Positions 4,303 to 61,246 of a stretch of 64,000 nucleotides of DNA are shown here, piece by piece. The position numbers and the translations under genes were made by a program. A model generated the notes under the pieces. The model worked only from the letters and a program-made list of their open reading frames with translations, ran no database searches and was not told the origin of the DNA. How positions within the stretch are numbered: the stretch's first letter is position 1; every line of letters starts with the position of its first letter. Source of the DNA: an uncultured Bacteroidota bacterium (GTDB taxonomy: Bacteria > Bacteroidota > Bacteroidia > Bacteroidales > GCA-2748055); contig CAKZNC010000113.1 of NCBI GenBank assembly GCA_937129385.1, positions 5,360 to 69,359 on the forward strand, read 5' to 3'.

Positions 4303-4303
4303 G

Positions 4304-4534: not shown

Positions 4535-4538
4535 AAAA

Positions 4539-4567: not shown

Positions 4568-4585
4568 GCATGAAATAAATACTGT

Positions 4586-5089
4586 TTAGAAGGATCCGCG
4601 TCCCTGCTCTTCGTAATCCTTGCGGGCCGAATAATTGATGATCAGTGCTTTTGCTCTTCGCAGTGCCTGTTTGACATCATCAACCTTGCCCATGGGGATG
4701 TCCTGGTCGATCCGCAATGACATTACCATCTTGTTCTTTTCGTTCTCGGGTAATTTCTCACGTTCGCTCAGCACAAAGTCCTGCACAGATTCTGTAGGTA
4801 TTCCCTCCTCATTAACGAGCTTGTCATTCATCTGTATCATTGGTTCCGATCCGTACAGCCCCTGCAGGTGTTTTGCCGGGCGGCCGATATAGATGTAGCT
4901 CACCAGTGATTTCTGTTCAAGTTTTTTCACTTCCGACACTTCTGTGGGAGTGATCTGTACCTGTACCTCTGTCTCTCTCATGGTTGTTGATACCATGAAG
5001 AAGAAGAGCAGCATGAATATGATATCAGGAAGGGAAGATGTATTGATCTTCTGTGCACCCTGTCCTTTTTTCCTTATAAATTTAGCCAT
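4586..5089 (-). CDS. exbD: ExbD/TolR-family biopolymer transport protein
   Basis: 167 aa. N-terminal motif INTSSLPDIIFMLLFFFMV is typical of ExbD/TolR. Its ATG overlaps the upstream stop codon by 1 nt. Confidence 0.88.
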   Translation of the reverse strand: MAKFIRKKGQGAQKINTSSLPDIIFMLLFFFMVSTTMRETEVQVQITPTEVSEVKKLEQKSLVSYIYIGRPAKHLQGLYGSEPMIQMNDKLVNEEGIPTESVQDFVLSEREKLPENEKNKMVMSLRIDQDIPMGKVDDVKQALRRAKALIINYSARKDYEEQGRGSF

Positions 5090-8705: not shown

Positions 8706-8707
8706 TA

Positions 8708-30481: not shown

Positions 30482-30599
30482 TTTATAAGGCAATGGTCCG
30501 GGGATGCAAAAATACCAAAAAATCCCATACCGTGAAGACTACTTTGCAGCCCTTGCCACTGCTGCAATGCAATTTGCTATTACAAAAGTTATTAACAAA

Positions 30600-32039: not shown

Positions 32040-32417
32040 ATGAGCAGGGAGCGAAAAAATATTGAATTTGAAGAGGTTAAAAAGGAGAAGGGAACACAAT
32101 TCTCCTTCAGGAGCCTGATCGATGGCAATGTACTCACCCAGCAATCGGTGATCCGGCAAGCCCCATATCTTGCATTACTGGTGATCATGGCACTCCTCAT
32201 GATCGCAAACAGGAACCACGCTGAAAAACTGGTCATCCGGTCAGATGAATTGCAGACCGAGGTGAAGGAGTTGAGATCAAGGGCGATCACCACCTCTTCC
32301 AATCTGACAATGGTGAGCCGGCAGAGCAGGGTGGAACAGATGGTACGAGAAAAGGAGCTTGGTCTGACAGAGAACAAGGAGCCACTTAAAAAATTGGTAA
32401 TGAAGGAGAAGAACTGA
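32040..32417 (+). CDS. ftsL: FtsL-like cell-division protein
   Basis: 125 aa, a single TM segment plus a coiled coil, in the canonical position between rsmH and ftsI. Confidence 0.7.
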   Translation: MSRERKNIEFEEVKKEKGTQFSFRSLIDGNVLTQQSVIRQAPYLALLVIMALLMIANRNHAEKLVIRSDELQTEVKELRSRAITTSSNLTMVSRQSRVEQMVREKELGLTENKEPLKKLVMKEKN

Positions 32418-34531: not shown

Positions 34532-35976
34532 AGCTGAACAGACTCATACAGGATGTGGAGGTTTCTGAAACCCATGGGGGTTCAGAAGTTGAGATCAGTG
34601 CGGTGACCTTTGATTCACGGAAGGTGAAACCGGGTACCCTGTTCATTGCCATCACCGGAACCATCGCAGACGGTCATGCCTACATCGAAAAGGCAGTCGC
34701 AAAAGGGGCCGTTGCCATCGTCTGTGAAAAACTGCCGGAAACAATGGACCCCGGCGTAGCATTCAGCCTGACCCCCAATTCACGAAAAGCACTGGCAATT
34801 ATAGCTGCTGAATGGTACGGGCATCCCTCGCGCGAGATTAGCCTGGTGGGTATTACCGGAACCAATGGAAAAACGACCATAGCCACCTTATTATATAAGG
34901 TCAATACCGGTCTTGGTTACAAGGCCGGTATTTTAACTACCATCGAAGTGATCATCAACGGAAAGCGTCACCCTGCCACGCATACCACACCCGATCCGAT
35001 GCAGATCAACAGCTGGATCAGGAGGATGGTCGATGCAGGATGTGCTTACTGTTTCATGGAGGTATCCTCCCATGCACTGAGTCAGCACCGTGTGGACGGA
35101 CTCACCTTCAAAGGAGGAGTGTTCACCAACCTGACCCATGATCACCTTGATTATCATAAGGATTTCAATGCATACCTGAAGGCCAAAAAATCATTTTTCG
35201 ATATGCTGGAGGAGGGTGCGTTTGCCCTGACCAATGCCGATGATAAAAATGGGAAGGTGATGCTTCAGAATACCCGCGCCAGTAAGCTCAGTTACGGCTT
35301 GGGGCGTCGGGCCGATTTCAATGCGAAGATCCTGGAACCCCACTTCGGAGGGATGCGGCTGCTGGTGGATGAGAGGGAGGTATGGGTGAAGCTTACAGGA
35401 CGTTTCAATGCTTCCAATATCCTGGCGGTTTACGGGGTATGTGTACTCCTGGACCATGATAAGACGGAGATACTCGAGGCGGTCAGCAAGGCTGATGCCG
35501 CTGCCGGAAGATTCCAGGTACTGCGGGGTGCGGAAGGTACCGTTGCAGTGATCGATTATGCACATACCGATGATGCACTGAAGAATGTGCTGGAAGCCAT
35601 TCGTGAGGTGAACCTGGAGGGCAGGGAGATCATTACAGTGATCGGAGCCGGGGGAGATCGTGACAGGGCCAAGCGGCCGAAGATGGGAGCTGTGGCTGCC
35701 TCATTGAGCAACAAGGTGATTTTGACTTCCGACAACCCGAGGTCTGAAGACCCTGCCATGATCATGGAGGAGATGGAAAATGGAATCGGACAGGAGCAGA
35801 GGGGAGCCATTCTGAAGATTGCCGATCGTGAGGAGGCGATCAAAACAGCCTGCATGATCGCAGGACCGGAATCCCTGGTGCTGGTGGCAGGAAAGGGACA
35901 TGAAAAAACCCAGGAGATAAGGGGAGAAAAAAAGCATTTCGATGATGAAGAGGTGATCACAAAATATTTAAAGTAA
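34528..35976 (+). CDS. murE: UDP-N-acetylmuramoyl-L-alanyl-D-glutamate--2,6-diaminopimelate ligase
   Basis: 482 aa. Mur ligase P-loop GITGTNGKTT and a DNPR motif (SDNPRSEDP). Confidence 0.94.
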   Translation: MKLNRLIQDVEVSETHGGSEVEISAVTFDSRKVKPGTLFIAITGTIADGHAYIEKAVAKGAVAIVCEKLPETMDPGVAFSLTPNSRKALAIIAAEWYGHPSREISLVGITGTNGKTTIATLLYKVNTGLGYKAGILTTIEVIINGKRHPATHTTPDPMQINSWIRRMVDAGCAYCFMEVSSHALSQHRVDGLTFKGGVFTNLTHDHLDYHKDFNAYLKAKKSFFDMLEEGAFALTNADDKNGKVMLQNTRASKLSYGLGRRADFNAKILEPHFGGMRLLVDEREVWVKLTGRFNASNILAVYGVCVLLDHDKTEILEAVSKADAAAGRFQVLRGAEGTVAVIDYAHTDDALKNVLEAIREVNLEGREIITVIGAGGDRDRAKRPKMGAVAASLSNKVILTSDNPRSEDPAMIMEEMENGIGQEQRGAILKIADREEAIKTACMIAGPESLVLVAGKGHEKTQEIRGEKKHFDDEEVITKYLK

Positions 35977-35982
35977 ATAGCA

Positions 35983-37233
35983 ATGTTCTACGAACTATTC
36001 AAATACCTGGAAAATCTGGACCTGCCCGGCGCGGGAATGTTTGAATACATCTCGTTCAGGGCAGCTCTGACCGTGATCACTTCGCTGCTGATCTCCCTTT
36101 TTATCGGTAAAAGTATCATCAGATTCCTGCAAAAGAAACAGATCGGGGAGACCGTGAGGAACCTCGGACTGGATGGTCAGAACCAGAAACAGGGGACACC
36201 CACCATGGGCGGCATCATCATCATTGCCTCTATCGTTGTTCCCGTGTTGCTCTTCGGAAAGCTTGACAATGTCTATGTAATCCTGATGCTTATTACTACC
36301 ATCTGGCTGGGAGTGATCGGGTTCCTGGACGACTACATCAAGGTGTTCCTGAAAAACAAGGAGGGACTGCGGGGTAAATTCAAGATCATAGGTCAGGTTG
36401 GTCTTGGCCTGATCGTTGGCATTACATTCCTGCTCAGCGATGATGCGGTGATCCGTGAACGGATACCGGTCAACGAGGAGACAAAGACCGAATATATCCA
36501 TCTGCCAACTGTGACGAATGATAACGGAGAGGAGTATTTTGTTAGGGACCACAAGACACCGCTGACCACCATCCCATTTGTAAAAGACAACGAATTCAAC
36601 TATACGTGGCTGGTCTGGTTTGCCGGAAAATACAAAGACAAGCTGGTATGGCTGATCTTTGTCCTGGTGGTCATCTTCATTGTGACTGCAGTTTCAAACG
36701 GGGCAAATCTCACTGACGGACTGGACGGACTGGCCACCGGATCGGCGGCAATCATCGGCACGACCCTCGGGATACTCGCATATGTATCGGGTAACGCGAT
36801 ATTTGCCGACTACCTGAACATCATGTACATCCCCAACGCAGGTGAGCTTGTGATCTTTGCTGCTGCATTCATCGGTGCGACCATCGGTTTTCTATGGTAC
36901 AACTCCTTCCCTGCACAGATCTTCATGGGAGATACCGGGAGTCTTGCATTGGGAGGGATCATTGCCGTCTTCGCGATTGTTATCCGGAAAGAGTTGCTTA
37001 TCCCGATCCTATGTGGGATCTACCTGTTCGAAAGTCTGTCGGTCATCATGCAGGTCAGCTGGTTCAAGCATACAAAGAAAAAATTTGGAGAGGGAAGAAG
37101 GATCTTCCTGATGGCTCCGGCCCATCATCATTATCAAAAGAAAGGCTACCCGGAAGCCAAGATCGTCACCCGTTTCTGGATCATCGGTCTGCTGCTGGCA
37201 GTCATCACCATTGTAACCCTGAAAATAAGATAA
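35983..37233 (+). CDS. mraY: Phospho-N-acetylmuramoyl-pentapeptide transferase
   Basis: 416 aa polytopic protein with [20 protein letters not shown] and [12 protein letters not shown] motifs. Confidence 0.96.
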
Positions 37234-37240
37234 ACACTAT

Positions 37241-38587
37241 ATGGAGAACAGAAAAAGAACAGTAATCCTGGGAGCCGGCGAAAGCGGGACAGGTTCAGCG
37301 ATTCTTGCGAAACAACAGGATTTTGATGTATTCGTCTCTGATTCGGGCAGGATCAACCCGAAGTACAAGGAGATGCTCGATGAGCACCAGGTCCTTTATG
37401 AAGGAAATGGACATACCGAACGCATGATCCTCAATGCCGATGAGATCATCAAGAGTCCGGGGATCCCGGAAAGTGCGCCAATCATGAAGTCCATCCGGAA
37501 ACGGGGGATCCACGTGATCTCGGAGATCGAATTCGCCGGTCGGTATACCGGCGCCAAGAAGATATGCGTCACAGGGAGCAACGGGAAGACCACCACCACA
37601 TCGCTCATTCACCATATGTTACGCAAGGCGGGTCTGAACATCGGGATCGCCGGAAACGTAGGAAAAAGCTTTGCACTGCAGGTCGCACAGGATGAATACG
37701 ATTATTATGTGCTGGAACTGAGTAGTTTCCAGCTGGACGGGATGTATGATTTCAAAGCCGATATCGCCATCCTGCTGAACATTACGGCCGATCATATGGA
37801 TCGCTACGATTACAACATGCAAAACTATGTAGATTCGAAATTCAGGATCACCCAGAACCTGACAGAAGAGGATTACTTTGTATTCTGTTCCGACGATGAG
37901 ATCACGATCAAGGAGCTGGAGAAGATCGTTTCCCGCGCAGTGCAACTTCCCTATGCATATGATAAGAAGGAGGATGATGTGGCCTGGGTGGATGATGCGC
38001 AGAAGATGCATATCGAATTCGAAGATGTCGACTTTTCAATGTCGGTTCATGAGCTCGCCCTCAAAGGTCGCCACAACACTTACAACAGTATGGCTGCCGG
38101 CATCGCCGGGAATGTCCTGAAGATCAGGAATGATGTGATCAGGGAAGCACTGATGGATTTCCAGGGGATCGAACACCGCCTGGAACGTCTGAACAAGGTA
38201 CATGGCATCAATTTTATCAACGATTCCAAGGCAACCAATGTAAATTCCACCTGGTATGCGCTGGAAAGCATCAAGGGGGAGATCATCTGGATTGCAGGGG
38301 GAGTAGACAAAGGGAACAATTACAGCGAGTTGAATGAACTGGTAAATCAGAAGGTAAAGGCATTGATCTGCCTGGGCAAGGACAATGAGCGGTTGAAGGA
38401 GGCATTCTCCGACAAAGTAGAGACGATCGTGGAATCCTCGACCATGGCAGAGGCGGTGAAGTCGGCCTATTACCTGGCATCGAAGGAGGACACTGTACTG
38501 CTCTCTCCAGCCTGTGCAAGTTTCGATCTGTTTGACAGTTATGAGGACAGGGGACGGAAGTTCAAGGCTGCCGTGAGGGAATTATAA
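37241..38587 (+). CDS. murD: UDP-N-acetylmuramoylalanine--D-glutamate ligase
   Basis: 448 aa with VTGSNGKTTT; position in the dcw cluster. Confidence 0.94.
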   Translation: MENRKRTVILGAGESGTGSAILAKQQDFDVFVSDSGRINPKYKEMLDEHQVLYEGNGHTERMILNADEIIKSPGIPESAPIMKSIRKRGIHVISEIEFAGRYTGAKKICVTGSNGKTTTTSLIHHMLRKAGLNIGIAGNVGKSFALQVAQDEYDYYVLELSSFQLDGMYDFKADIAILLNITADHMDRYDYNMQNYVDSKFRITQNLTEEDYFVFCSDDEITIKELEKIVSRAVQLPYAYDKKEDDVAWVDDAQKMHIEFEDVDFSMSVHELALKGRHNTYNSMAAGIAGNVLKIRNDVIREALMDFQGIEHRLERLNKVHGINFINDSKATNVNSTWYALESIKGEIIWIAGGVDKGNNYSELNELVNQKVKALICLGKDNERLKEAFSDKVETIVESSTMAEAVKSAYYLASKEDTVLLSPACASFDLFDSYEDRGRKFKAAVREL

Positions 38588-38614
38588 TTAAAATTCAGAA
38601 GGAACAGGGAACAG

Positions 38615-39799
38615 ATGAATGTGATCAAATACATAAGGGGCGACCGGGTGATCTGGACAGTGATCATCATCCTCAGCGTGGTTTCGTTGCTGTCGGTCTA
38701 CAGCTCCACCGGATCACTCGCCTATAAGAAGGTGTCGGGCGATACCTTCTACTACCTGTTCCGGCAATTCAAGTACATCATCCTGGGACTTGGTGTGATC
38801 ATCTTTTTCCAGTTGATCCCCTACCAGGCCTTCAACAAGTTGTCGCTAGGTTTCCTGGCCGTGGCCGTTGTCCTTTTGGTGGTCACCCTCATCAAGGGGC
38901 AGGAGATCAACGATGCCAACCGCTGGCTTGCCATCCCGGGGACGAGTAATACCTTTCAGCCGTCGGAATTTGCAAAATTCGCGCTGGTGATGTACCTGGC
39001 CCGGGTCCTGGGGAACAACCAGGACAATATGGACAATTTCAAGGGGGTGTTCATGAAGCTGATCGCAGCAATATCACTGGTATGTGTATTGATCCTGCCA
39101 ACCAATCTGTCCACAGCAGCAATCATCTTCACCGTCTCATTCATTCTGCTTTTTGTCGGCCGTGTGCCGATTAAATACCTCGCATTATTTATCGGAACAG
39201 GCCTTGCCGGACTGGCACTGTTCCTGATGTTGTCATCTGCCATGAGCAGGGAGGGACGGATCACCACCTGGAAACACAGGATTGAAAGGTATGTAACAGG
39301 TGAGGGAGATAATTTCCAGGCCGACCAGGCGAAGGTGGCCATCGTCAGGGGAGGGTTACTGCCGAATGGTCCGGGTACCAGCACCCAGCGCATCCTGCTT
39401 CCACATCCCTATTCCGATTTTATATTCGCGATCATCGTGGAAGAGTATGGGTCCATTATAGGCGGACTGCTGCTTATTTTTCTCTACCTGTGGCTGTTGT
39501 TCAGGACCGGGATCATCGTCAGGAGATCCAAAAGCACTTTCGGGGCATTCCTTGCATTTGGACTTGCCCTGGGCCTGGTATTCCAGGCATTTGTAAATAT
39601 GGGGGTGGCAGTCGGACTGTTGCCCGTGACCGGGCAGACGCTCCCGCTTGTGAGTATGGGTGGATCGTCCATGTTCTTCACAAGTATGGCACTCGGTATG
39701 ATCTTGAGTGTTAGCTGGGGAGTGGCCAGGGAGCTTGAAAACGAAGAGGAGGAAGTCCTCCAGGAAGAAACTGTAAATGAAGGAAGCGAAGAAATATAG
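38615..39799 (+). CDS. ftsW: SEDS-family peptidoglycan glycosyltransferase FtsW
   Basis: 394 aa with about 10 TM segments. FQPSEFAKF and PVTGQTLPLVSMGGSS motifs. Confidence 0.92.
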   Translation: MNVIKYIRGDRVIWTVIIILSVVSLLSVYSSTGSLAYKKVSGDTFYYLFRQFKYIILGLGVIIFFQLIPYQAFNKLSLGFLAVAVVLLVVTLIKGQEINDANRWLAIPGTSNTFQPSEFAKFALVMYLARVLGNNQDNMDNFKGVFMKLIAAISLVCVLILPTNLSTAAIIFTVSFILLFVGRVPIKYLALFIGTGLAGLALFLMLSSAMSREGRITTWKHRIERYVTGEGDNFQADQAKVAIVRGGLLPNGPGTSTQRILLPHPYSDFIFAIIVEEYGSIIGGLLLIFLYLWLLFRTGIIVRRSKSTFGAFLAFGLALGLVFQAFVNMGVAVGLLPVTGQTLPLVSMGGSSMFFTSMALGMILSVSWGVARELENEEEEVLQEETVNEGSEEI

Positions 39800-40892
39800 G
39801 ATCATCATCGGAGGTGGAGGAACCGGGGGGCATATCTTCCCGGCCATTTCCATTGCGAACGCGCTCAGTGAAATGCTGAATGATGCAAGCTTCCTGTTCG
39901 TCGGAGCCAGGGGCAAGATCGAGATGGAGAAGGTTCCGGAAGCGGGCTACGAGATTTTTGGTCTGCCCATCGCCGGCTTTCAGCGGAAGATATCCATCAG
40001 GAACATCAGCTTCTTTTTCAAACTGGTCCGGAGCATGATGCTTTCAGCTAAGCTGGTTAGGAAATTCAAGCCAGACCTGGCCATAGGAGTGGGCGGGTAT
40101 GCAAGTGGTCCGATCGTCAGGGCCGCAGCACGTCGCGGTATTCCCGTGGTATTGCAGGAACAGAATTCCTATGCTGGTGTCACCAACAGGTTATTGGGCA
40201 AATCGGCCACGAAGATCTGTGTTGCCTACGAAGGAATGGAAAAATACTTTCCGCGGGATAAGATCGTACTCACGGGGAATCCTGTCCGCCAGGACCTGGT
40301 GATGCCGCCTGGCGAATTTGAAAAGAGCATGTCGCATTTCGGGCTCAACCCTGGGCAGAAGGTGATCCTGCTTATTGGCGGGAGCCTGGGTGCCAGGACA
40401 TTGAATGAGAGCATCATGGCCAATCTGGACATGATCAGGGAGTCCGGCTTCCAGTGGATCTGGCAGTGCGGGAAATATTATCATTCCGCAGCAGAGGAAT
40501 CACTGGGTAAGAGCGGAGTTACGAATATCATGTTGTTCCCTTTTATCAGGTCGATGAACCGTGCCTTCCAGGTCGCAGACGTGATCATTTCACGGGCAGG
40601 GGCAGGCACCATTTCAGAGCTCTGTATCGTCGGCAAACCGGTCATCCTGGTCCCGTCACCCAATGTGGCAGAGGATCACCAGACCAGCAATGCAAAGTCG
40701 TTGACCGACCATGGAGCAGCTGTGATGGTTGCTGACAGGGATGCTTCAAAGGAGCTAGTTCCGGCAGCAATCCGACTGGCAGGAGATGAAGAGGGGGAAG
40801 GAAAACTTTCAAAAAATATTGAGAAACTGGCCCTACCCGATGCAGCAAAAGAGATCGCCGGGGAGGTGATAAAAATACTTGACCGAAAATGA
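39777..40892 (+). CDS. murG: Undecaprenyldiphospho-muramoylpentapeptide beta-N-acetylglucosaminyltransferase
   Basis: 371 aa with GGGTGGHIFPAISIA and RAGAGTISE motifs. Confidence 0.95.
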   Translation: MKEAKKYRIIIGGGGTGGHIFPAISIANALSEMLNDASFLFVGARGKIEMEKVPEAGYEIFGLPIAGFQRKISIRNISFFFKLVRSMMLSAKLVRKFKPDLAIGVGGYASGPIVRAAARRGIPVVLQEQNSYAGVTNRLLGKSATKICVAYEGMEKYFPRDKIVLTGNPVRQDLVMPPGEFEKSMSHFGLNPGQKVILLIGGSLGARTLNESIMANLDMIRESGFQWIWQCGKYYHSAAEESLGKSGVTNIMLFPFIRSMNRAFQVADVIISRAGAGTISELCIVGKPVILVPSPNVAEDHQTSNAKSLTDHGAAVMVADRDASKELVPAAIRLAGDEEGEGKLSKNIEKLALPDAAKEIAGEVIKILDRK

Positions 40893-42259
40893 TCTGGAAA
40901 AATCTCGATAGCGTCTACTTCGTTGGTGCGGGTGGCATTGGAATGAGCGCCCTGGCCAGGTTTTTCCAAAGCCATGGAAAATACGTGGCGGGGTATGACC
41001 GCACGTCAACAAGTCTGACCGATCAGCTCGCGCGTGAACAGATCGATATCCATTTTGAGGACCGGCCGGAACTGATCCCGGAGGAGTTCAGGAATCCCGA
41101 TCGCACACTGGTGATCTACACACCTGCAGTACCTGACAATACCAGCGAGCTGGACTATTTCAGGAGGAACGGATTCAGGGTGATCAAGCGATCTGCTGCA
41201 CTGGGTGAGGTGTTCAACGCAGGGAACGGAATCGCTGTTGCCGGAACCCACGGAAAGACATCGGTGTCGACGATGCTGGCCCTGATCATGTCGGAATCAC
41301 ATGCAGGGTGCAATGCATTCCTGGGAGGGATCTCAAAGAATTTTGACAGCAACCTTGTCACCCACCCGAATTCACGGACCATTATTGCCGAAGCAGATGA
41401 GTTTGACAGGTCATTCCTGGCCCTATTCCCCCAAATGGCTGTGATTACCTCGGTTGACAACGATCATATGGATATCTACGGCAGCAGGGAAAAGCTGGTG
41501 GATGGATTTGAATCTTTTGCTGCCCAGATCAAGGATAAGGGACGGTTGATCCTCAAGGCCGGGGTGGACATACGGGTACCCGATCATATCGATGTCTTCA
41601 CCTATTCACTGGATGATCTGCGGGCCGACTATCATATCGTGAAGCGTGAATCAGTACAGGGCATCTACAGGTTTACCGTAAAAACCCCGAAGAATATTTT
41701 TGAGACCTCACTGGGAATGCCGGGTCTGCTCAACGTGGAGAATGCACTGGCTGCAATAGCTGTGGCAGACCAATCCGGAATCCCCCTGGAGCACATCGCG
41801 CTGGCACTTAAAAAATTCAAAGGAGTAAAGCGAAGGTTTGATGTGCAGGTGATGCAGGGAAACAGGGTATATATCGATGATTATGCGCACCACCCGGAGG
41901 AGTTGAAGGCCTTTATCGGATCTGTAAGAGAGATGTTCCCCTCAGGCAGACTCACAGGAATCTTTCAGCCTCACCTGTTTACACGTACACGTGACTTCGC
42001 TGTAGAATTCGGTGAGAGTCTTTCGGGTCTTGATGAACTGATCCTCCTGCCGGTTTACCCTGCGCGCGAGAAGCCTGTTCCGGGGGTGAGTTCCCAGTTG
42101 ATCTTTGACCACGTGAAACTGGATGAAAAGGTTTTGATCTCCAATGAGCAGTTGGTGCCTGTGATGCGCGAGAGGGATCCGGAGATCCTCCTCACCATGG
42201 GAGCCGGAGATATAGACAGACTTGTTGAACCGTTGAAATCCTGGATGGAGAAAAAATGA
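40889..42259 (+). CDS. murC: UDP-N-acetylmuramate--L-alanine ligase
   Basis: 456 aa with FVGAGGIGMSALA and AGTHGKTS motifs. Confidence 0.95.
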   Translation: MIWKNLDSVYFVGAGGIGMSALARFFQSHGKYVAGYDRTSTSLTDQLAREQIDIHFEDRPELIPEEFRNPDRTLVIYTPAVPDNTSELDYFRRNGFRVIKRSAALGEVFNAGNGIAVAGTHGKTSVSTMLALIMSESHAGCNAFLGGISKNFDSNLVTHPNSRTIIAEADEFDRSFLALFPQMAVITSVDNDHMDIYGSREKLVDGFESFAAQIKDKGRLILKAGVDIRVPDHIDVFTYSLDDLRADYHIVKRESVQGIYRFTVKTPKNIFETSLGMPGLLNVENALAAIAVADQSGIPLEHIALALKKFKGVKRRFDVQVMQGNRVYIDDYAHHPEELKAFIGSVREMFPSGRLTGIFQPHLFTRTRDFAVEFGESLSGLDELILLPVYPAREKPVPGVSSQLIFDHVKLDEKVLISNEQLVPVMRERDPEILLTMGAGDIDRLVEPLKSWMEKK

Positions 42260-43038
42260 TCAGAAAGATCGTACATATCGCCTTGTGGGTCCTGCTGGCA
42301 GGATGGTTCACCCTGATGATGGGTTTTGTCTCCAGGAGCAGTGCCGACATCCTGTGCGGTGAACTGTCGGTGATTATCTCCGACTCGGCAACAACAAAGT
42401 TCGTCACCGACCAGGCGATCAGGGAAATGATCAAAAATTCAGGGATGAATATCCAGGGATACCCGGTTGCAGGTATCGATACCAGGAAACTGGAAAAGAT
42501 CATTGAAGAGCAGCCCTATGTAGAAAATGCTGAGGTGTATATCGACATTGAGGGCAGGCTATTCATAGATGTGGATCAGCGCAAGCCACTGGTAAGGCTG
42601 ATGCCCGGAGGAAAACAGGGTTTTTACATAGATGCCGACGGTGTGATCCTCCCGCTTTCAAAAACATATGCGCCCATGGTGCTGCTGGTGACAGGATTTT
42701 GTGATTTTAAGATTGCAGGGGATGAACATGGAGTGAAGCATACTGATAAGGGGAGTGACCAGGAGATCGGGCAGTTGCTGGGTTTTGCTGAATATGTATC
42801 GGCCCACCCGTTCTGGAGCAACCAGGTGGTGCAGATGTACCGGAACAAAAACGGAGATTACGAACTTATTCCGAGGGTGGGAGCCCACCAGGTCATCTTC
42901 GGACCCATGGATCATTACAACGAAAAACTGCGTAACCTTTCGCTGCTGTATGACCAGGGACTGAAAAAATATGGGTGGAACAATTATGACAAGATCAATT
43001 TAAAATATTCAAACCAGATAATCTGTACAAAACGTTAA
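42256..43038 (+). CDS. ftsQ: Cell-division protein FtsQ (POTRA-containing)
   Basis: 260 aa. A single TM segment followed by a POTRA-like domain; position between murC and ftsA. Confidence 0.8.
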   Translation: MIRKIVHIALWVLLAGWFTLMMGFVSRSSADILCGELSVIISDSATTKFVTDQAIREMIKNSGMNIQGYPVAGIDTRKLEKIIEEQPYVENAEVYIDIEGRLFIDVDQRKPLVRLMPGGKQGFYIDADGVILPLSKTYAPMVLLVTGFCDFKIAGDEHGVKHTDKGSDQEIGQLLGFAEYVSAHPFWSNQVVQMYRNKNGDYELIPRVGAHQVIFGPMDHYNEKLRNLSLLYDQGLKKYGWNNYDKINLKYSNQIICTKR

Positions 43039-43042
43039 TACT

Positions 43043-44371
43043 ATGGCTCAAGAAAATCGAATTGTTGCGGCAATTGACATCGGCACAACCAAGATCGTAA
43101 GTCTGATCGGACGGTTGAACGAGCAAAACAGGCTCGAAGTACTTGGTATCAGCAGATCTGCATCCAAAGGGGTGAAGCGCGGGGTGGTACTGAACATAGA
43201 AGAGACAGTAAATGCAATTCAGAACACCATCGCCGAAGCCCAGGAGCAGTCGGGACTCACCTTCTCGGAAGTCTTCGTCGGGATCGCAGGTCAGCACATC
43301 AAATCTGTCAGGAACCGCGGTTATGTGAACCGCGATTCATATGAGGACGAGATCACGCGGGATGATCTCCAGGCACTGATCGAAGACATGTACAAAATTC
43401 CTGTGGACGTTGGGGAGGAGATCATCCACGTTCTTCCCCAGAACTACATCGTGGACAATGAAACAGGTGTGAAAAACCCTGTGGGCATGTTTGGCAAGCG
43501 GCTGGAAGCAAATTTCCATATCGTGATCGGTCAGATCTCCTCAGCGAGGAATATTGAAAAATGCATCAAGCGGGTCGGACTGGATGTGAAACAGCTGATC
43601 CTGGAACCGCTTGCCTCAAGTTCGGCGGTGCTCACCGAGGATGAGATCGAAGCTGGTGTCGCGCTGGTGGACATTGGCGGCGGGACCACCGATGTGGCTG
43701 TTTACTATGATGATGTAATCCGACACACGGCAGTGATCCCCTTCGGAGGTAACGTGGTTACAAGGGACATCAAGGAAGGATGTGCCATCCTGCAGAGACA
43801 GGCGGAATCCCTGAAGATACAGTTCGGATCTGCACTGGGCGATCTGGCAACAGATGACAAGGTGGTGACCATTCCCGGGATCTCAGGACGTGACCCGAAA
43901 GAGATCAGTTTTAAAAGCCTGGCCTATATCATTCAATCCAGGATGGAAGAGATCATCGATGCGGTGATCTACGAAATTGAGAATTCGGGCTACATGGATA
44001 AACTCAGCGCCGGTATCGTACTTACCGGAGGAGGAGCCATGCTGAAGAACCTGAACCAGCTTGTGAAGTTCAAGACCGGCATGGACGTGCGTATCGGTTA
44101 CCCGAGCGAGTGTCTTGCCGCTGATACCCCGGAAGAGATCAACCAGCCCATGTACAGCACCTCCATCGGTCTGCTGTTGAAAGGCATGGAGATCTATGAA
44201 GAGAAAAAGGAGTCGCTGAAGGTGAATAAGATCGACCAGGATGCAGTGGAACCGGAAGAGGTTGAACATCTTGGAAAGAAGAAGATGAAAGACCGCATAG
44301 GTGGCAAGCTGCTAGAAAACCTCAAAAATACCCTCAGCGATATTTTTGATGAGAGTGATGTAAAAATGTAA
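43043..44371 (+). CDS. ftsA: Cell-division protein FtsA
   Basis: 442 aa, actin-like ATPase (AIDIGTTKI, VDIGGGTTD, LTGGGAML). Confidence 0.95.
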   Translation: MAQENRIVAAIDIGTTKIVSLIGRLNEQNRLEVLGISRSASKGVKRGVVLNIEETVNAIQNTIAEAQEQSGLTFSEVFVGIAGQHIKSVRNRGYVNRDSYEDEITRDDLQALIEDMYKIPVDVGEEIIHVLPQNYIVDNETGVKNPVGMFGKRLEANFHIVIGQISSARNIEKCIKRVGLDVKQLILEPLASSSAVLTEDEIEAGVALVDIGGGTTDVAVYYDDVIRHTAVIPFGGNVVTRDIKEGCAILQRQAESLKIQFGSALGDLATDDKVVTIPGISGRDPKEISFKSLAYIIQSRMEEIIDAVIYEIENSGYMDKLSAGIVLTGGGAMLKNLNQLVKFKTGMDVRIGYPSECLAADTPEEINQPMYSTSIGLLLKGMEIYEEKKESLKVNKIDQDAVEPEEVEHLGKKKMKDRIGGKLLENLKNTLSDIFDESDVKM

Positions 44372-44408
44372 GATCACTTTTAAGAATGAACATTTAAAAT
44401 TACCAGTT

Positions 44409-45836
44409 ATGAGCGATATTTTGAATTTTGACCTGGCACCTGAAAGGTCATCGATCATTAAAGTGATCGGAGTGGGAGGAGGCGGTGGAAACGCCGTAAA
44501 TCATATGTTTCACAAGGGCATCAAGGATGTGAATTTCGTGGTGTGCAATACCGATGGCCAGGCACTGGCCAACAGTCCTGTCGCGGTGAAGCTGCAGTTG
44601 GGTGAAAACCTGACAGAAGGACGGGGTGCCGGCAGCAAGCCCGACATTGGAAGGCAGGCAGCCCTGGAGAGTCTGGATTCGATCAAGGAGGTGCTTGAGG
44701 CCAATACCAATATGGCGTTCATAACTGCCGGTATGGGAGGTGGAACAGGGACCGGTGCCGCTCCCGTGATTGCCAAGGTGGCAAAGGAGATGGGAATCCT
44801 TACCGTGGGGATTGTTACCATCCCATTCGGATTCGAAGGGCCGGAACGTATCAACCATGCCATTAAAGGGATCGGTGAACTGAAAGACCATGTCGACTCC
44901 CTGCTCGTGATCAAGAATGAAAAGTTAAGGGAGGTGTATGGTAACCTGACCCTCAGTGAGGCTTTTGCAAGGGCCGATGATGTACTTACTTCCGCTGCAA
45001 AAGGCATTGCAGAGATCATTACAGTTCCCGGGTATGTGAATGTCGATTTTGCGGATGTACAGACCGTGATGACCGACAGTGGGGGAGCGATCATGGGCTC
45101 AGCAACAGCCGAAGGTGAGAACAGGTCGATCAAAGCCATCGAAGCCGCGCTGACATCGCCATTGCTGAATAACAACGAGATTACCGGGGCACGGAGTATC
45201 CTGCTGAATATCACTTCCGGGACCAAGGAGATCACCATGGATGAGATCTCAGAGATCACCGATTATGTCATCGCCTCCTCTTCAAAGGAGACCACGCTGA
45301 TCTGGGGCATGGGTCATGATTCGAGCCTGGAAGAGAAGATTGGTGTTACAGTTATTGCCACCGGGTTCAAGATGAACAACATCCTGGATGTTTACGTGGA
45401 AAAGAAACAGCTGGATTTTGTGCCATTGCGTGATGACAAGTCCAGGGAAAACCCAGGCACTGAAAAGATAAAGCCGAAGCAGCAGCGATTCGAATTTGAT
45501 GAACCCGGACCTGAGAAGAAGTCCGAGGAATATGTACTGTTCGACCAGGCCAGGGAAGAGAAGAGGGAAGAGAAGGAGAAGAAGCTTGCCCAACGGGTAA
45601 GGGATCTGAAGGAGACCCACGAAAGATTGAAAGCCAGCGGGTATACATCGGGTTCGAAAGACAACGAGATCGAAGAGATGGAAAATGTACCTGCTTACAT
45701 CAGGAAAAAGATGAAGCTTGACCCGGGAAAGCTTTCTGAAAACGAGGAGGTGTCCCGTTACAGGCTCTCCGACGAAGAGAATGATTCACCCAAGTTGAGG
45801 CAGGACAATTCTTACCTGCACGACAATGTTGATTAA
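44409..45836 (+). CDS. ftsZ: Cell-division GTPase FtsZ
   Basis: 475 aa. GGGTGTGAAP tubulin signature, an E/K-rich linker, the C-terminal peptide VPAYIRKK, and a Bacteroidota-type tail ending SYLHDNVD. Confidence 0.97.
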   Translation: MSDILNFDLAPERSSIIKVIGVGGGGGNAVNHMFHKGIKDVNFVVCNTDGQALANSPVAVKLQLGENLTEGRGAGSKPDIGRQAALESLDSIKEVLEANTNMAFITAGMGGGTGTGAAPVIAKVAKEMGILTVGIVTIPFGFEGPERINHAIKGIGELKDHVDSLLVIKNEKLREVYGNLTLSEAFARADDVLTSAAKGIAEIITVPGYVNVDFADVQTVMTDSGGAIMGSATAEGENRSIKAIEAALTSPLLNNNEITGARSILLNITSGTKEITMDEISEITDYVIASSSKETTLIWGMGHDSSLEEKIGVTVIATGFKMNNILDVYVEKKQLDFVPLRDDKSRENPGTEKIKPKQQRFEFDEPGPEKKSEEYVLFDQAREEKREEKEKKLAQRVRDLKETHERLKASGYTSGSKDNEIEEMENVPAYIRKKMKLDPGKLSENEEVSRYRLSDEENDSPKLRQDNSYLHDNVD

Positions 45837-57659: not shown

Positions 57660-57672
57660 TTTCTTGCTTGTG

Positions 57673-57680
57673 CAAATTTA
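57673..57680 (-). promoter_or_regulatory. Candidate -7 promoter box (TAAATTTG on the minus strand) for mfd
   Basis: The plus strand reads caaattta. The box is 13 nt upstream of the mfd ATG at 57659. Confidence 0.35.
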
Positions 57681-57739
57681 CTTCTTTTTTGTGGAGGATT
57701 GTTCTTTTATCAACAACAGGGAATGCACTTGAACCCGAT

Positions 57740-59488
57740 TTAAGCCGGAGGCACCAATAGCTGGAACATGTTGTTCTCCCAGGCGACCTCATAACCGTTC
57801 CGGTGCATGAAATCATTGAGTATCCTCCCGTGTTCAGGCCATTTCGAGAGATCATCCGGGTAGTCAAGATATCTATCTGCTGCAGCATCGGCAGGCCACT
57901 CCGCAAGACCTGTATTTTGCTTCTGCCTGATCACTGCAGGTAGTGAATCCCGCAGACTTTTCGCCTCAGCAAGCTTGTCACTGAATGTATCTGCATTGTA
58001 ATACAGTTTTGGCCATGAGGTGGAAATGTAGGGCGGCTTATCTGCCAGGTAATTGATCATCGGTATCTCAATGAAGCTCAGCAGATATGTTTCATCGATC
58101 ATCGGAAAAGCTTCCCTGACAAGTTCATTGATCGCTTTTGCTCTCTCCTCAGATGTATATATGCACACCAGTTTTTCATGTGCAACGGGCACGTTTTTCA
58201 ACCACCTGCTGCCTGCATCAAAATAGGTGTTTTGCCACGCATGGACCAGGGCCGTTACGATGATCATGCCCCGTAACGTTCTAAATATCATCCTTCTGTC
58301 CTGTTCTGACAGTTCAATTCTGACCGGTTTGAACAGTGTTCTGAGATCCTCCCCGGCCAGAAGCAGGGGAACCAGGATCCACATACCGAAAACCGATTTC
58401 CCCAGCCAGGAGTCGGAACCGAACGGAGTTATGAAGAACAGGATCAGCCCGGCAAATGCAAGCATCCTGAAACCTGCGGTCCTGCTGCGGTCAGTCACGT
58501 ATTGTATCCCGGATAACAGCACAAGACCGATCAACAGGTACCGGATCTTGCTCCAGAATGCGTTCCCGAATACAAGCATCAGGATAAATGCGCAAAAGGC
58601 CAGGACCAATGGAAGGACCAGTCGTACAAGGGGACGGGAATTTATGCCAGACCTGGTGGTGATTTTTCCATATATCCAGATTGCAACCAGGAAAAGCAAC
58701 AACACGATGAGGGCATTTATAAATCCTTTGACATACATGATGATCAGCGGTACTATGCCATGGGAAGCTTCATGATCCGATGCGACATTGAATATGAAGT
58801 TCAGGTTGTTAAAAAACAGATCCCGGTGTCCCAAAGCTACCATGAGCCCCAGGATCAAGGCAGTCCCGGTAATGAATCCGGACAATGCAAAAAGCGTCTG
58901 ACGGAAATTCTTTGCCATACCCGCTTTCTGGATAGAGAGGTAGCAGGGGATGACCAGTAGCAGAAACAGACCCGCAAAGTTTGTGAGCCTGAGGAACATG
59001 CTGATGCCTATAGCCATACCTCCCGCGAACAGCAGGATGCTCCGCCGTTGTGTCAGACCAAAATAGAAGGAGAGAATCACCAGGGAGTAACCAAACATGG
59101 TCAGTACATCATAATTCAGACATTCAAATCCCCCTTTAATGATAAAAACAGCAATGATAAATAGCCCCAAGACAGCTCCCCTGAAACCTGTTTCCTGCTT
59201 AATGATCCGGTGGTAGATCAGAAATGTCAGGGTGAAGAAAACCACTGTCCCGAGCCTGCACCAGAACAAGCCCCCTGCAGGAAAGATATTCATCCAGGCG
59301 GCTCCGAGAATATCAGATAACCAGAATACCATTGAGTATTGAACGGAATAGGGATCCTCCAGGATAAACCTGAAAGCGGTAAGATGAAAACCGGTATCCG
59401 CAAGGTCCAGCCCCTGAAAGGATAAGAGCAGCTGCCAGAATATTAGTATTATGGTGAATCCGTATACATAGCGTCGATCAGTTTTCAT
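57740..59488 (-). CDS. GT-C-fold polytopic membrane glycosyltransferase (ArnT/PMT/Emb-like architecture)
   Basis: 582 aa from the ATG at 59488 (the track TTG is at 59515). Roughly 10-13 hydrophobic segments, the acidic motif GLDLADTG in the first loop, and a soluble C-terminal domain of about 175 aa. Confidence 0.6.
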   Translation of the reverse strand: MKTDRRYVYGFTIILIFWQLLLSFQGLDLADTGFHLTAFRFILEDPYSVQYSMVFWLSDILGAAWMNIFPAGGLFWCRLGTVVFFTLTFLIYHRIIKQETGFRGAVLGLFIIAVFIIKGGFECLNYDVLTMFGYSLVILSFYFGLTQRRSILLFAGGMAIGISMFLRLTNFAGLFLLLVIPCYLSIQKAGMAKNFRQTLFALSGFITGTALILGLMVALGHRDLFFNNLNFIFNVASDHEASHGIVPLIIMYVKGFINALIVLLLFLVAIWIYGKITTRSGINSRPLVRLVLPLVLAFCAFILMLVFGNAFWSKIRYLLIGLVLLSGIQYVTDRSRTAGFRMLAFAGLILFFITPFGSDSWLGKSVFGMWILVPLLLAGEDLRTLFKPVRIELSEQDRRMIFRTLRGMIIVTALVHAWQNTYFDAGSRWLKNVPVAHEKLVCIYTSEERAKAINELVREAFPMIDETYLLSFIEIPMINYLADKPPYISTSWPKLYYNADTFSDKLAEAKSLRDSLPAVIRQKQNTGLAEWPADAAADRYLDYPDDLSKWPEHGRILNDFMHRNGYEVAWENNMFQLLVPPA

Positions 59489-59567
59489 TTGTGAATCGGT
59501 TCTGAGCGTTTTCAATCAGGGGAATTGTTTGCGGACAGTAGCATATGCTGTTTCTGTATTTTTAAGA

Positions 59568-60440
59568 TCAGATTACGTAAATGAATAGCAGAAAACTGAT
59601 CAACCAACCGGCAATGATGATTTTTAAAGGATGATCGGTAATCAGCAGCATCACCGGGTTCTGTGTGGATTCTGTCACAAAAATCAGTTGAAGATACCTG
59701 AGTATCCCGGCAATCACCCAGAATGAGGTGATGTAGAGATTGTCATTGTCAACCCGGCTGATCGTTACCGGGTCGAGTGTATACATGATATAGGCAACCA
59801 GCACAACAGAGGAGAGTATAATCATGCTGAAATTCAAATATTTCAGGTTATAATTCCTGGCTGAGGATCTCAGCAAGATTCCCTCCTTTTCGAGGTAGAC
59901 CACGTCGTTACGTCTTTTCCCAATGGCAATGAGCATCGACAACAGGAAGGTCATGATGATGATCCATTCGGTGAGGTAAATACCGGCTGCTTCAGACCCT
60001 GCATACAAACGCAGCACGAACCCGACAGCAATGACCATCATGTCGAAAATAGGGATGTTCTTTATACCGGTACTGTACGCTATATTCAGCAATTTATACC
60101 CCAGGATGACGTAAAACACATGTATGTTGACAAAATATGCGATGAGGAATGCGGCTGCAGTAAGGAAAATATCAATGATGTATGCGACCGGAACCCTGAT
60201 CCTGCCTGCTGCAATGGGCCTGTTTTTATTGACAGGATGATTCCGGTCATCATTTCTGTCCATGATGTCATTGAATACATAAACACTGCTTGAGATCAGG
60301 CAGAATGAGACAAATGCCAGGGCTGTTCCTGCAAGCAATGAGGTTTGATGAAATTCACCTGAGAAGAACAGGGGTAGGAAGACAAACAGGTTCTTCAGGT
60401 AATGGCGCGGCCTAAGCAGCCTGATGAGCTGATTGGTCAT
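59568..60440 (-). CDS. UbiA-superfamily polyprenyl-phosphate phosphoribosyltransferase (Rv3806c/DPPR-synthase-like)
   Basis: 290 aa with about 8 TM segments. The motif NDIMDRNDDRNHPVNKNRPIAAG (NDxxDxxxD then HPxKxxRPIAxG) matches the decaprenyl-phosphate 5-phosphoribosyltransferase subfamily as I recall it. Confidence 0.65.
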   Translation of the reverse strand: MTNQLIRLLRPRHYLKNLFVFLPLFFSGEFHQTSLLAGTALAFVSFCLISSSVYVFNDIMDRNDDRNHPVNKNRPIAAGRIRVPVAYIIDIFLTAAAFLIAYFVNIHVFYVILGYKLLNIAYSTGIKNIPIFDMMVIAVGFVLRLYAGSEAAGIYLTEWIIIMTFLLSMLIAIGKRRNDVVYLEKEGILLRSSARNYNLKYLNFSMIILSSVVLVAYIMYTLDPVTISRVDNDNLYITSFWVIAGILRYLQLIFVTESTQNPVMLLITDHPLKIIIAGWLISFLLFIYVI

Positions 60441-61048
60441 TTTTTAATCCTCCATTTATAATATTTAATGTCGGCAATTCCGAGCATCGGCAGATCACTT
60501 CTGGAATCCCCATAAGCATAGATCTTACTTGCTTTCTTCAGGTCATATTGCTCCTGTATCCTCCTGACCTTCTCTGTACCTTTGCAGTTTTTTCCCTGCA
60601 AGCTGCCTGTGACCTTACCACCCGAAACTTCGAAATCCGTGGCAATTAAATCCAGGTAGAACTCCCTGCACCAGCCTCTGCACCATGCGTGAAGTGAAGC
60701 GGTTACGACCACTATGGTTGCACCTGCTGATTGGTGTGATGCAATTTCCTTTATAGCCCGTTTACGGATCATCCCGGGAAGCACTTTTGCGGAGAATTCA
60801 TCTCCTTTTTTTTCAAAATGCTCCTTCGTGAATTCGCCGAAGAATTTTCGTAAAACGAGCTCCTTTGCTTTTGCTGAAGGGTATAAACCCACCCTGTTCA
60901 TGGCCAGGTAAGGGGCCAGCCTGGCCAGACCCGAATAATACCGTCCTGCATTGAAACAGTACCTTATAAAAGCGAACAATGTGTCTTTCCTGGTGATCGT
61001 GCCGTCCAGATCCATGAATACCAATATATCGGCGGATTTTTTTTCCAA
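60437..61048 (-). CDS. HAD-IB-family phosphatase
   Basis: 203 aa. Motif I ILVFMDLDGTIT, motif II VVVTAS, and motif IV YGDSRSDLPML. The TTG start at 61048 is needed to keep the beta-1 strand before DLDGT. Its stop overlaps the UbiA start (ATGA). Confidence 0.8.
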   Translation of the reverse strand: MEKKSADILVFMDLDGTITRKDTLFAFIRYCFNAGRYYSGLARLAPYLAMNRVGLYPSAKAKELVLRKFFGEFTKEHFEKKGDEFSAKVLPGMIRKRAIKEIASHQSAGATIVVVTASLHAWCRGWCREFYLDLIATDFEVSGGKVTGSLQGKNCKGTEKVRRIQEQYDLKKASKIYAYGDSRSDLPMLGIADIKYYKWRIKK

Positions 61049-61246
61049 GGTTAATGATCTTTTTCGGTGTCAGTATAATTTTCATCTGACCAAAATTAAT
61101 CACAAAATAGGATTGATGTTAAATGTATAAAGATATATTTTCTTGCTAAATTTCGGAAGAGAAAAGATGGTTGGATTGTTGCTGAATATTGACACAACCG
61201 GTTATACAGTGCATTCTTAAAGATATTGCCAGTCTGTGATTCTCCT

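Follow-up and report, generated by a model that had tools for sequence, protein, structure and literature searches.

Which reaction sequence is encoded where a gene for an HAD-type phosphatase, a gene of the UbiA superfamily and a gene for a large polytopic membrane protein follow one another on the same strand? The question is raised by positions 57740-61048 of a 64,000-nucleotide stretch of contig CAKZNC010000113.1, from an uncultured Bacteroidota bacterium of marine-sediment type; the whole stretch is here called the window, and the three genes the trio. An initial annotation, made from the letters and their open reading frames (ORFs), had described three co-directional minus-strand genes, as the ORF coordinates bear out, and had read them as the logic of the mycobacterial Rv3806c pathway compressed into three genes, a module it did not know to be characterised in Bacteroidota. 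Our own reading, to which we give a probability of about 0.7, is that the trio is a self-contained polyprenyl-phospho-pentofuranose glycosylation module acting outside the cytoplasmic membrane. The compressed logic is thus supported, and our literature searches found no follow-up, no pentofuranose-bearing envelope glycan and no characterised system of this type for Bacteroidota; the logic itself, though, was not new, a widespread "three-component system" of this kind having been reported in 2024. With the pathway concept in print, what is new here is the phylum, an uncharacterised family of GT-C membrane glycosyltransferases, and a locus with no dedicated flippase gene.

Two bodies of earlier work frame the argument. 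In mycobacteria, the decaprenyl-phospho-arabinose pathway is made up of Rv3806c, Rv3807c, DprE1/DprE2, Rv3789 and the GT-C enzymes of the Emb/Aft type. More widely, three-component systems for pentofuranose glycosylation were reported by Kelly et al. (PNAS 2024); they are composed of a phosphatase (PRP) joined to a polyprenyl-phosphate 5-phosphoribosyltransferase (PPPRS), a transporter and a GT-C (PMC11127046). In Citrobacter youngae O1, ORF15 is a fusion of HAD (PRP) and UbiA (PPPRS) domains and yields polyprenyl-phospho-ribofuranose from phosphoribosyl pyrophosphate (PRPP); its HAD domain was shown to dephosphorylate the lipid-linked ribofuranose 5-phosphate, and a D18A substitution in it left the 5-phosphate in place; ORF14 is proposed to be the flippase; and ORF12, the GT-C that founded family GT136, adds alpha-ribofuranose to the O-antigen in the periplasm (PMC11127046). 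Auxiliary epimerases turn the donor into xylofuranose or arabinofuranose, and the supplementary information lists transporters of the MATE or SMR type, GT-Cs that are mostly annotated as hypothetical, and one system, that of phage BK026208.1, in which PRP is encoded by a gene of its own; neither the paper nor its supplement names an example from Bacteroidota (PMC11127046).

The UbiA-family protein of the window is strongly supported, by profiles and aligned residues, as a polyprenyl-phosphate 5-phosphoribosyltransferase of the Rv3806c type. Pfam places it in generic UbiA only; of the NCBIfam models for decaprenyl-phosphate phosphoribosyltransferases (DPPRS), the equivalog NF008978 scores 208.2 bits (cutoff 207), NF008977 199.8 bits (cutoff 234) and NF008976 145.5 bits (cutoff 474). 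No clustering with MenA, UbiA, CyoE or chlorophyll synthase, the outcome that the initial annotation had named as speaking against such an enzyme, was seen: whereas the DPPRS models reach 146-208 bits, those for UbiA, MenA, CyoE and ChlG give only 24-50, and every non-DPPRS prenyltransferase model (quinone, haem, chlorophyll, archaeal lipid) stays at or below 50 bits, the best at 49.7. In the PDB the best match is 8j8j, Rv3806c of Mycobacterium tuberculosis (E 3.5e-30, 109 bits), followed by an archaeal UbiA homologue (E 1e-7, 35 bits).

Rv3806c binds Mg2+ through N73 and D77, ribose through N73 and Q135, the 5-phosphate through K28, Y70 and Y157, and pyrophosphate through R22, K87, R90, K143 and Y138, and its phosphoribose sites are reported not to be conserved in ordinary UbiA enzymes (PMC10994848). 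When the window protein was aligned with eleven orthologues linked to the GT-C family and with five homologues from comparator loci (described below), R22, K28, Y70, N73, D74, D77, D81, R90, Y138 and K143 were found to be retained in it and its orthologues (the R22 position being a conservative Lys in four orthologues), such that 10 of the 13 functional positions of Rv3806c are identical in the window protein. Q135 is replaced by Asn throughout the aligned set, with the exception of Thr in a fused Rhizobium protein, and Y157 is Phe in the window set, a residue also noted at this position in some mycobacteria (PMC10994848). It is these profiles and residues that carry the assignment; the stretch from which the initial annotation had drawn it, NDIMDRNDDRNHPVNKNRPIAAG (residues 57-79), does not, because its NDxxDxxxD motif is common to the whole UbiA superfamily.

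An ordinary prenyltransferase of the aromatic or quinone type, in a set of three neighbouring genes that share no glycosylation function, we consider very improbable: the superfamily-wide motif, the marginal equivalog score and the label "4-hydroxybenzoate polyprenyltransferase" on some Joint Genome Institute (JGI) annotations of orthologues are what such a view can draw on, while it is opposed by the distance between the two groups of profile scores, by the conserved linkage to the HAD and GT-C genes, and by the 5-phosphate-binding K28 and Y70, which are kept in the window protein and reported not to be conserved in prenyltransferases (PMC10994848). Names in the JGI annotations are uneven among close orthologues, some of which (e.g. 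P0066, P0077, P0099 and P0111) bear this label and others "decaprenyl-phosphate phosphoribosyltransferase"; the former is probably a misannotation.

The gene overlapping that of the UbiA protein encodes an HAD protein of subfamily IB (Pfam HAD PF12710, E 1.6e-33; NCBIfam TIGR01490, 109.3 against a cutoff of 98.3), in which all four catalytic motifs are intact, namely motif I (DLDGT, 13-17), motif II (VVVTAS, 113-118), the motif III Lys (in GKNCKG, 152-157) and motif IV (GDSRSD, 180-185). Stand-alone HAD proteins encoded beside DPPRS-like genes in the comparator loci L015, L016 and L010 share 32-42% identity with it (E 1e-35 to 1e-56), and an HAD gene adjoins the PPPRS gene in these three as well as in 11 trio loci, in three different orders. 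The same combination exists as a fusion in the 482-aa NCBIfam family PRK08238, whose HAD domain is joined to the N-terminus of a DPPRS-like UbiA domain: the window UbiA protein aligns to positions 193-477 of this family and the window HAD matches positions 66-159 weakly (E 1.4e-5, 24 bits); BLASTP of the window HAD against the N-domain of the Rhizobium HAD-UbiA fusion gave no match at 1e-3. As judged by sequence similarity, the window HAD belongs to a dedicated PPPRS-partner subfamily, and gene linkage together with the ORF15 precedent predicts for it the PRP role, that of a polyprenyl-phospho-ribose-5-phosphate phosphatase. The earlier suggestion that an HAD enzyme replaces the Rv3807c-type phosphatase is matched by the demonstrated PRP domain of C. 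youngae ORF15 (PMC11127046). Concerning the 5' end of the gene, the only in-frame start upstream of motif I is the TTG at 61048, directly followed by a run of eight A (region 61030-61105); the ATG at 61085-61083 belongs to another frame (a 96-aa ORF, 60813-61103), and orthologues align only from residue 9 of the window HAD onwards, four residues before the DxD motif. There may be a homopolymer length error or a frameshift at this end.

The third, 582-aa protein has a GT-C fold as modelled. PDB sequence searches with the protein alone and with a profile of its family returned nothing meaningful and no match to ArnT; an alignment-based AlphaFold2 model is of high confidence (mean pLDDT 90.1, pTM 0.90), and the structural comparison that the initial annotation had proposed, with ArnT and EmbC among the references, gave a uniform answer: the top 23 Foldseek matches in the PDB are all GT-C enzymes (E 1e-5 to 1e-2), including STT3 of OST-A/B, ArnT, AglB, PglB, DPY19, ALG9 and EmbA/B/C, with ArnT (5f15, 5ezm) best by target-normalised TM-score (0.51-0.52). 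The only profile signal in the family is a weak match to PMT_2 (PF13231), found in 16 of 35 close and 17 of 43 diverse members. The model consists of about 13 membrane helices followed by a soluble domain of mixed alpha/beta structure (four long helices, four or more strands); the many transmembrane (TM) segments and the loop motif at residues 26-33 had been correctly read from the translation, and a soluble domain of about 175 aa had been expected where the model has 163 (residues 420-582). This domain has no Pfam or PDB sequence match, and a single-sequence prediction of it alone was unusable (pLDDT 34.5), its fold being read from the full-length model; Y422, D424, R428 and W570 within it are conserved in at least 90% of the broad family. 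It probably recognises the acceptor and is a candidate acceptor-binding domain.

The position directly after the first membrane helix is the canonical site of the catalytic acid in GT-C enzymes, and here it is occupied by D28 (conserved in at least 90%) and the invariant D31, in 35 close homologues and in 43 members at 22-42% identity alike; we regard the two as a candidate catalytic acidic pair. With the N-terminus (K2/R5/R6) placed inside, from which sidedness was derived, the conserved polar residues D28, D31, E122, N125, Y126, D127, D238, H243, W312, K314, R316, Y317 and D359 all come to lie on the predicted periplasmic side. By analogy with R349/Y350 of GT136 ORF12, the sequence WSKIRY may be a lipid-phosphate or donor-contact motif. 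What points to a polyprenyl-phosphate-linked sugar as the donor of this putative transferase is its linkage to the PPPRS gene.

That linkage is conserved. Nine reference-genome loci encode relatives of the window GT-C, among them loci in Sunxiuqinia, Mangrovibacterium and Puteibacter (Prolixibacteraceae, Marinilabiliales), in several metagenome-assembled genomes (MAGs) of Bacteroidales or Bacteroidota, and in one MAG of Flavobacteriaceae. Cultured bacteria with the trio are Mangrovibacterium lignilyticum BM_7 (NZ_WKLH01000001, about 1.323-1.326 Mb) and Puteibacter caeruleilacunae JC036 (SJCO01000006); the 6.5-Mb Prolixibacteraceae contig CAXXQR010000001 is from a further genome that bears it. 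The order HAD, UbiA, GT-C is found in all eight that could be evaluated, and an all-against-all comparison of flanking ORFs found only these three genes to be common to all loci. Across the clade and its nearby relatives, all 11 evaluable loci (the window, L001-L007, L009, L013 and L019) have the trio, which is retained at 37% GT-C identity in L013 and, in the order GT-C, UbiA, HAD, at 28% in L019; L012, at 33%, has a UbiA-GT-C pair with no adjacent HAD gene. In all, the UbiA and GT-C genes adjoin in 12 loci, at GT-C identities of 28% to 64%. The co-occurrence that the initial annotation had proposed to examine is therefore found in other genomes, once in rearranged form, and since linkage that survives rearrangement speaks for function rather than inherited synteny, comparison of these loci supports a functional link among the three genes. 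In L012 (UbiA at 2726-3598, GT-C at 3565-5331), a gene for a PAP2-family phosphatase lies about 3 kb downstream (8418-9101), beside a lipid desaturase gene; Rv3807c being of the PAP2 type, the product of this gene could be an alternative phosphatase, and equally the two may be unrelated sphingolipid genes.

Beyond this clade the transferase has a much larger family, with other partners. An exhaustive profile search over 1.84 billion representatives returned 2063 matches at E<=1e-3, of which 897 reach E<=1e-30; the majority are full length and take in the C-terminal domain. Clustered at 50% identity, the family comprises no fewer than 897 clusters, every one of them labelled "hypothetical", and a further homology search with a deep alignment returned the same clade. 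The distant members whose contexts were sampled (24-28% identity; L011, L020, L022, L023 and L024) have no UbiA or HAD gene and are located in polysaccharide loci. Each of these encodes a GT2 of roughly 310-350 aa close to the GT-C, in L023 and L024 immediately upstream of it, and has neighbours such as Wzx, Wzy, Wzz, a DegT aminotransferase, and a formyltransferase or acetyltransferases. A GT2 polyprenyl-phosphate-sugar synthase together with a periplasmic GT-C is a classical pairing. In a rough neighbour-joining tree (without support values, and with few members of known gene context) the window clade is uniformly UbiA-linked and has conserved residues of its own (E122, W312, K314, R316, Y317, R341 and K364), while P0177, the member with the reordered trio, is placed among the GT2-linked members. 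No relationship was detected between the GT-C family and the DUF6044 protein of L010 by hhalign, or between its profile and seven comparator transferases (DUF6044, GT39, DUF2723 and three hypothetical proteins) by hmmsearch.

These wider contexts also feed a different reading of the large membrane protein: that it does not consume the lipid-linked ribose, but is a GT-C with another donor (for example a polyprenyl-phospho-hexose made by a GT2) or a flippase, the product of the UbiA and HAD enzymes feeding a transferase encoded elsewhere. The distant members, which have GT2 and aminosugar genes rather than UbiA as their partners, the GT2 gene just upstream of the trio in L019, and two loci (L016 and L014) in which a UbiA gene, with or without HAD, has no adjacent GT-C would all accord with it, and a translocation role has been suggested for the GT-C TfpW (bioRxiv 10.1101/2020.04.19.049825). 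We consider it improbable, given that the UbiA-GT-C adjacency persists in its 12 loci through a change of gene order, that the trio of the window clade has no conserved GT2 neighbour, and that the clade-specific residues are consistent with a specialised donor. Under the reading we prefer, in which the GT-C uses the product of its two neighbours, the family would keep its acceptor-side scaffold and exchange its donor modules (GT2 or UbiA plus HAD). Since distant members sit beside GT2 genes in loci of the Wzx/Wzy/Wzz type, a surface polysaccharide (lipopolysaccharide (LPS) O-chain, core or capsule) is, by analogy, the most likely class of acceptor. Both the donor exchange and the acceptor are put forward tentatively, because the tree lacks support values and few contexts are known.

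Which pentose would be transferred depends on epimerases. A Pfam survey of 40 other ORFs of the window found no FAD oxidase, short-chain dehydrogenase/reductase (SDR), NAD-epimerase, MATE, SMR/EamA or GtrA gene, and phmmer searches with the SMR-like and epimerase proteins of L010, combined with a scan for small hydrophobic ORFs, were negative in the window and in nine related loci; the idea that a flippase or an epimerase is hidden in small ORFs of the window was rejected on this evidence. The absence of DprE1/DprE2 from the window, noted in the initial annotation, is borne out by both searches, and no DprE1/E2 or other epimerase gene occurs in the 64 kb or in the flanks examined at the 11 trio loci, which cover about 2-10 kb each. 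In the five comparator loci, whose genes are given here in their order, epimerase or transporter genes do lie next to UbiA. L010, a faecal scaffold, carries UbiA, HAD, SMR/EamA, NAD-epimerase and DUF6044 genes; L015, from the gammaproteobacterium Marinicella, carries UbiA, GtrA, FAD oxidase and SDR genes, a gene for a 498-aa protein and HAD; L016, a metagenomic contig, carries HAD, UbiA and GtrA; L017, on a plasmid of Chondrinema (Bacteroidota), carries DPPRS, FAD oxidase, SDR, acyltransferase and GT39 genes, with a further GT39 and a DUF2723 gene upstream; and L018, from Rhizobium, carries fused HAD-UbiA, GtrA, FAD oxidase and SDR genes and a gene for a 518-aa protein. Wherever epimerase genes are present (L010, L015, L017 and L018), they lie directly beside the UbiA gene, in four of four systems.

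An arabinofuranose or xylofuranose as the transferred sugar, made by the same pathway with polyprenyl-phospho-ribose epimerised by DprE1/DprE2-like or ORF13-like enzymes encoded elsewhere, we therefore rate as unlikely: the FAD oxidase and SDR genes of L015, L017 and L018 and the NAD-epimerase gene of L010 exemplify such systems, GT136 ORF12 takes both ribofuranosyl and xylofuranosyl donors, and the epimerase search was confined to the window and the trio flanks, while all four comparator systems keep these genes at the side of UbiA and the trio loci have none within the flanks examined. Because epimerase genes are absent from the trio loci and yet adjacent to UbiA where they do occur, the sugar is probably ribofuranose. 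Given a module of this kind at all, ribose appears a reasonably good prediction for the sugar transferred, with polyprenyl-phospho-ribofuranose as the likely donor, and by analogy with inverting GT-Cs the D-ribofuranose would be alpha-linked.

Some of the comparator loci merit description in their own right. L010 (MT837543.1, "UNVERIFIED Bacteriophage sp.", human faeces) has its five genes within 898-5419, among them those of a 118-aa SMR/EamA-like protein and the 565-aa DUF6044 protein; this arrangement suggests a role for DUF6044 as membrane transferase in a further pentofuranose system, whose source is probably a gut Bacteroidales or one of its phages. A phage-borne seroconversion module was considered as an explanation for the trio and rejected, the only match in the phage collection being this unverified scaffold with its different transferase, and the flanks in the window being housekeeping genes. 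L017 (Chondrinema litorale plasmid NZ_CP111066.1, 849-13931) encodes a decaprenyl-phosphate phosphoribosyltransferase so annotated by PGAP, a DprE1-like FAD oxidase and a DprE2-like SDR, along with two acyltransferases, two GT39 proteins and one DUF2723 protein: an arabinan-like gene set outside Actinobacteria.

Taken together, the proposed pathway would have four steps. At the cytoplasmic face, the UbiA enzyme would move 5-phosphoribose from PRPP to polyprenyl phosphate, presumably undecaprenyl phosphate, a step that sequence comparison strongly supports. Next, the HAD-IB enzyme would remove the 5-phosphate to give polyprenyl-phospho-ribofuranose, as gene linkage and the ORF15 precedent suggest. 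The lipid-linked sugar would then reach the periplasmic face with the help of a general flippase, of a transporter whose gene lies outside the locus, or conceivably of the GT-C; flipping is not explained by the locus. Finally, the GT-C would use D28/D31 in its first periplasmic loop to move the pentofuranose to an acceptor; for this step the fold is seen in the model and the chemistry we infer.

Of the known systems, those of Kelly et al. share most of this scheme, namely a UbiA-type PPPRS acting on PRPP, an HAD phosphatase, a GT-C with an extra C-terminal periplasmic domain, and ribofuranose as the sugar if there is no epimerase. They differ in that the window HAD is encoded by a separate gene overlapping that of UbiA by ATGA and not as an N-terminal domain, in that neither the trio locus nor the 64-kb window has a MATE or SMR transporter gene, and in that the trio lies among housekeeping genes and not in an O-antigen cluster. 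The transferases are also dissimilar by description, which is the level at which they were compared: GT136 ORF12 has 11 TM helices and a beta-rich carbohydrate-binding module, whereas the window GT-C has about 13 and an alpha/beta C-terminal domain, and ORF12 is reported to match EpsG in CDD, whereas no member of the window GT-C family does so, showing only the weak PMT_2 match. With the mycobacterial pathway the trio shares a homologous first enzyme (Rv3806c being its best PDB match) and the sequence of dephosphorylation, flipping and GT-C transfer; by contrast, the window phosphatase is an HAD and not a PAP2-type protein such as Rv3807c, neither DprE1/E2 nor a GtrA-like Rv3789 is found in the window or the trio loci, the GT-C is unrelated in sequence to Emb/Aft (Foldseek E of about 1e-2 to EmbC), and the host is Gram-negative, with undecaprenyl phosphate presumably as the lipid.

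Two further systems offer partial likenesses. GT-Cs of the ArnT/PMT_2 type (clan of GT83 and GT39) resemble the window protein by the best TM-score, by about 13 TM helices preceding a C-terminal periplasmic domain and by the weak PMT_2 signal among the diverse relatives, and the GT2, DegT and formyltransferase genes beside distant family members resemble ArnC, ArnB and ArnA. In the window, however, the donor would come from PRPP by way of UbiA and HAD and not from a nucleotide sugar by way of a GT2, and the GT-C stays below Pfam and NCBIfam thresholds, with no ArnT match in the PDB even when the family profile is used. In the arabinosylation of group IV pilin in Pseudomonas aeruginosa (PPPRS, DprE1/E2 homologues and TfpW), a Rv3806c homologue of a Gram-negative bacterium builds a polyprenyl-phospho-pentofuranose for a GT-C-like transferase, according to a published account and a preprint (PMC11127046; bioRxiv 10.1101/2020.04.19.049825); there the donor is epimerised to arabinofuranose, the target is pilin and the genes lie next to the pilin gene, whereas the Pfam survey of window ORFs found neither a pilin gene nor an epimerase gene near the trio.

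Several points weigh against the trio being a glycosylation module. All support for it consists of homology, fold and gene linkage. The NF008978 score exceeds its cutoff by only 1.2 bits, with two sister models below theirs, and K87 of Rv3806c, a ligand of the beta-phosphate, is Asn in the UbiA proteins of the window, L001 and L003 (Lys72 is adjacent in the window protein). On the GT-C side, no Pfam or NCBIfam model was reached by the window protein, and the TM-scores of its best Foldseek matches are moderate (0.44-0.52). The locus has no MATE, SMR/EamA or GtrA gene, unlike every characterised or proposed system of the kind (PMC11127046); genes for epimerases or a transporter may lie in other parts of the genome, as the search covered the window and the trio flanks. 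Lastly, the trio sits among housekeeping genes, and because of this the locus gives no hint of the acceptor.

The arrangement of the genes is compact (Table 1). The ATGA at 60437-60440, where the HAD stop and the UbiA start overlap, and the gap of 52-79 nt behind UbiA, both described in the initial annotation, are borne out by the sequence; the overlap indicates that HAD and UbiA are coupled. The extent of the gap, counted from the UbiA stop at 59568, is 52 nt if the GT-C gene begins at a TTG at 59515 (57740-59515, 591 aa) and 79 nt if it begins at the ATG, and the latter is favoured because orthologues align from residue 1-2 of the 582-aa form onwards. Scans of the locus for sigma-70 promoters and intrinsic terminators were at chance level and a search for the Bacteroidota-type -33/-7 promoter pattern found none; these scans being uninformative, the operon boundaries rest on spacing and conserved order.

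Table 1. Positions of the trio genes and of motifs and domains in their products (window coordinates).
Feature	Position	Strand	Remark
HAD-IB phosphatase gene	60437..61048	-	203 aa, TTG start
HAD motif I, DLDGT (residues 13-17)	60998..61012	-	Asp13 predicted nucleophile; read from translation
UbiA-family polyprenyl-phosphate 5-phosphoribosyltransferase (PPPRS/DPPRS-type) gene	59568..60440	-	290 aa
First Asp-rich motif, NDIMDRNDD (UbiA residues 57-65)	60246..60272	-	corresponds to Rv3806c N73, D74, D77, D81 (Mg2+/PRPP site)
GT-C-fold membrane glycosyltransferase gene	57740..59488	-	582 aa from ATG at 59488
First external loop motif, GLDLADTG (residues 26-33)	59390..59413	-	directly after TM1
WSKIRY (residues 312-317)	58538..58555	-	W312, K314, R316, Y317 conserved in UbiA-linked clade only
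C-terminal soluble alpha/beta domain (residues 420-582)	57743..58231	-	full-length model, pLDDT mostly >84; predicted periplasmic, highly conserved

Around the trio, the Pfam survey identified housekeeping genes, such as those of LptC, type III pantothenate kinase, a SurA-like chaperone and PabB/PabC-like enzymes, as well as MraW, the first gene of a probable dcw cluster. Between the GT-C stop and the start of the next gene on the same strand, a 1111-aa ORF labelled mfd-like from its sequence, there are 80 nt (57660-57739) with no terminator-like site, and read-through or co-transcription of the trio into this gene is possible; in other genomes the mfd-like gene is not a conserved neighbour of the trio. 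Farther off, the gene of the MraW/RsmH methyltransferase (31140-32039, plus strand) is followed by ten co-directional ORFs (32417-45836), and the region 31140-45836 (plus strand) is probably a complete dcw cluster for cell division and cell wall, with MraW as its verified member. Just before it, on the minus strand, lie adjacent genes for a GNAT-type Acetyltransf_5 protein (28575-29597) and an Acyltransf_2 protein (29618-30493), which we take to be an OlsB/OlsA-like pairing that makes N-acyl amino-acid lipids (ornithine or glycine lipids).

A broader proposal, which we hold as a speculative one, is that the 582-aa protein represents a large, unclassified GT-C family occurring in Bacteroidota and in other bacteria, new at the level of CAZy families, in which a fixed C-terminal acceptor scaffold is served by swapped donor modules (hexose or aminosugar lipids made by GT2, or a ribofuranose lipid made by UbiA plus HAD), and that the trio in Prolixibacteraceae-like bacteria adds ribofuranose to an envelope glycan conserved throughout the lineage (lipid A, LPS core or capsule), no dedicated flippase being involved. 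If that were true, polyprenyl-phosphate sugars would have to be moved by a general flippase or by the GT-C itself; the lack of a flippase gene bears in any case on how polyprenyl-phosphate monosaccharides cross the membrane. One transferase scaffold used with either GT2 or UbiA plus HAD as donor module would be a natural example of modular exchange in periplasmic glycosylation, with possible use in glycoengineering. If confirmed, the module would extend the route from PRPP to lipid-linked pentofuranose into Bacteroidota, and would provide the first functional handle on a GT-C family of at least 897 "hypothetical" clusters.

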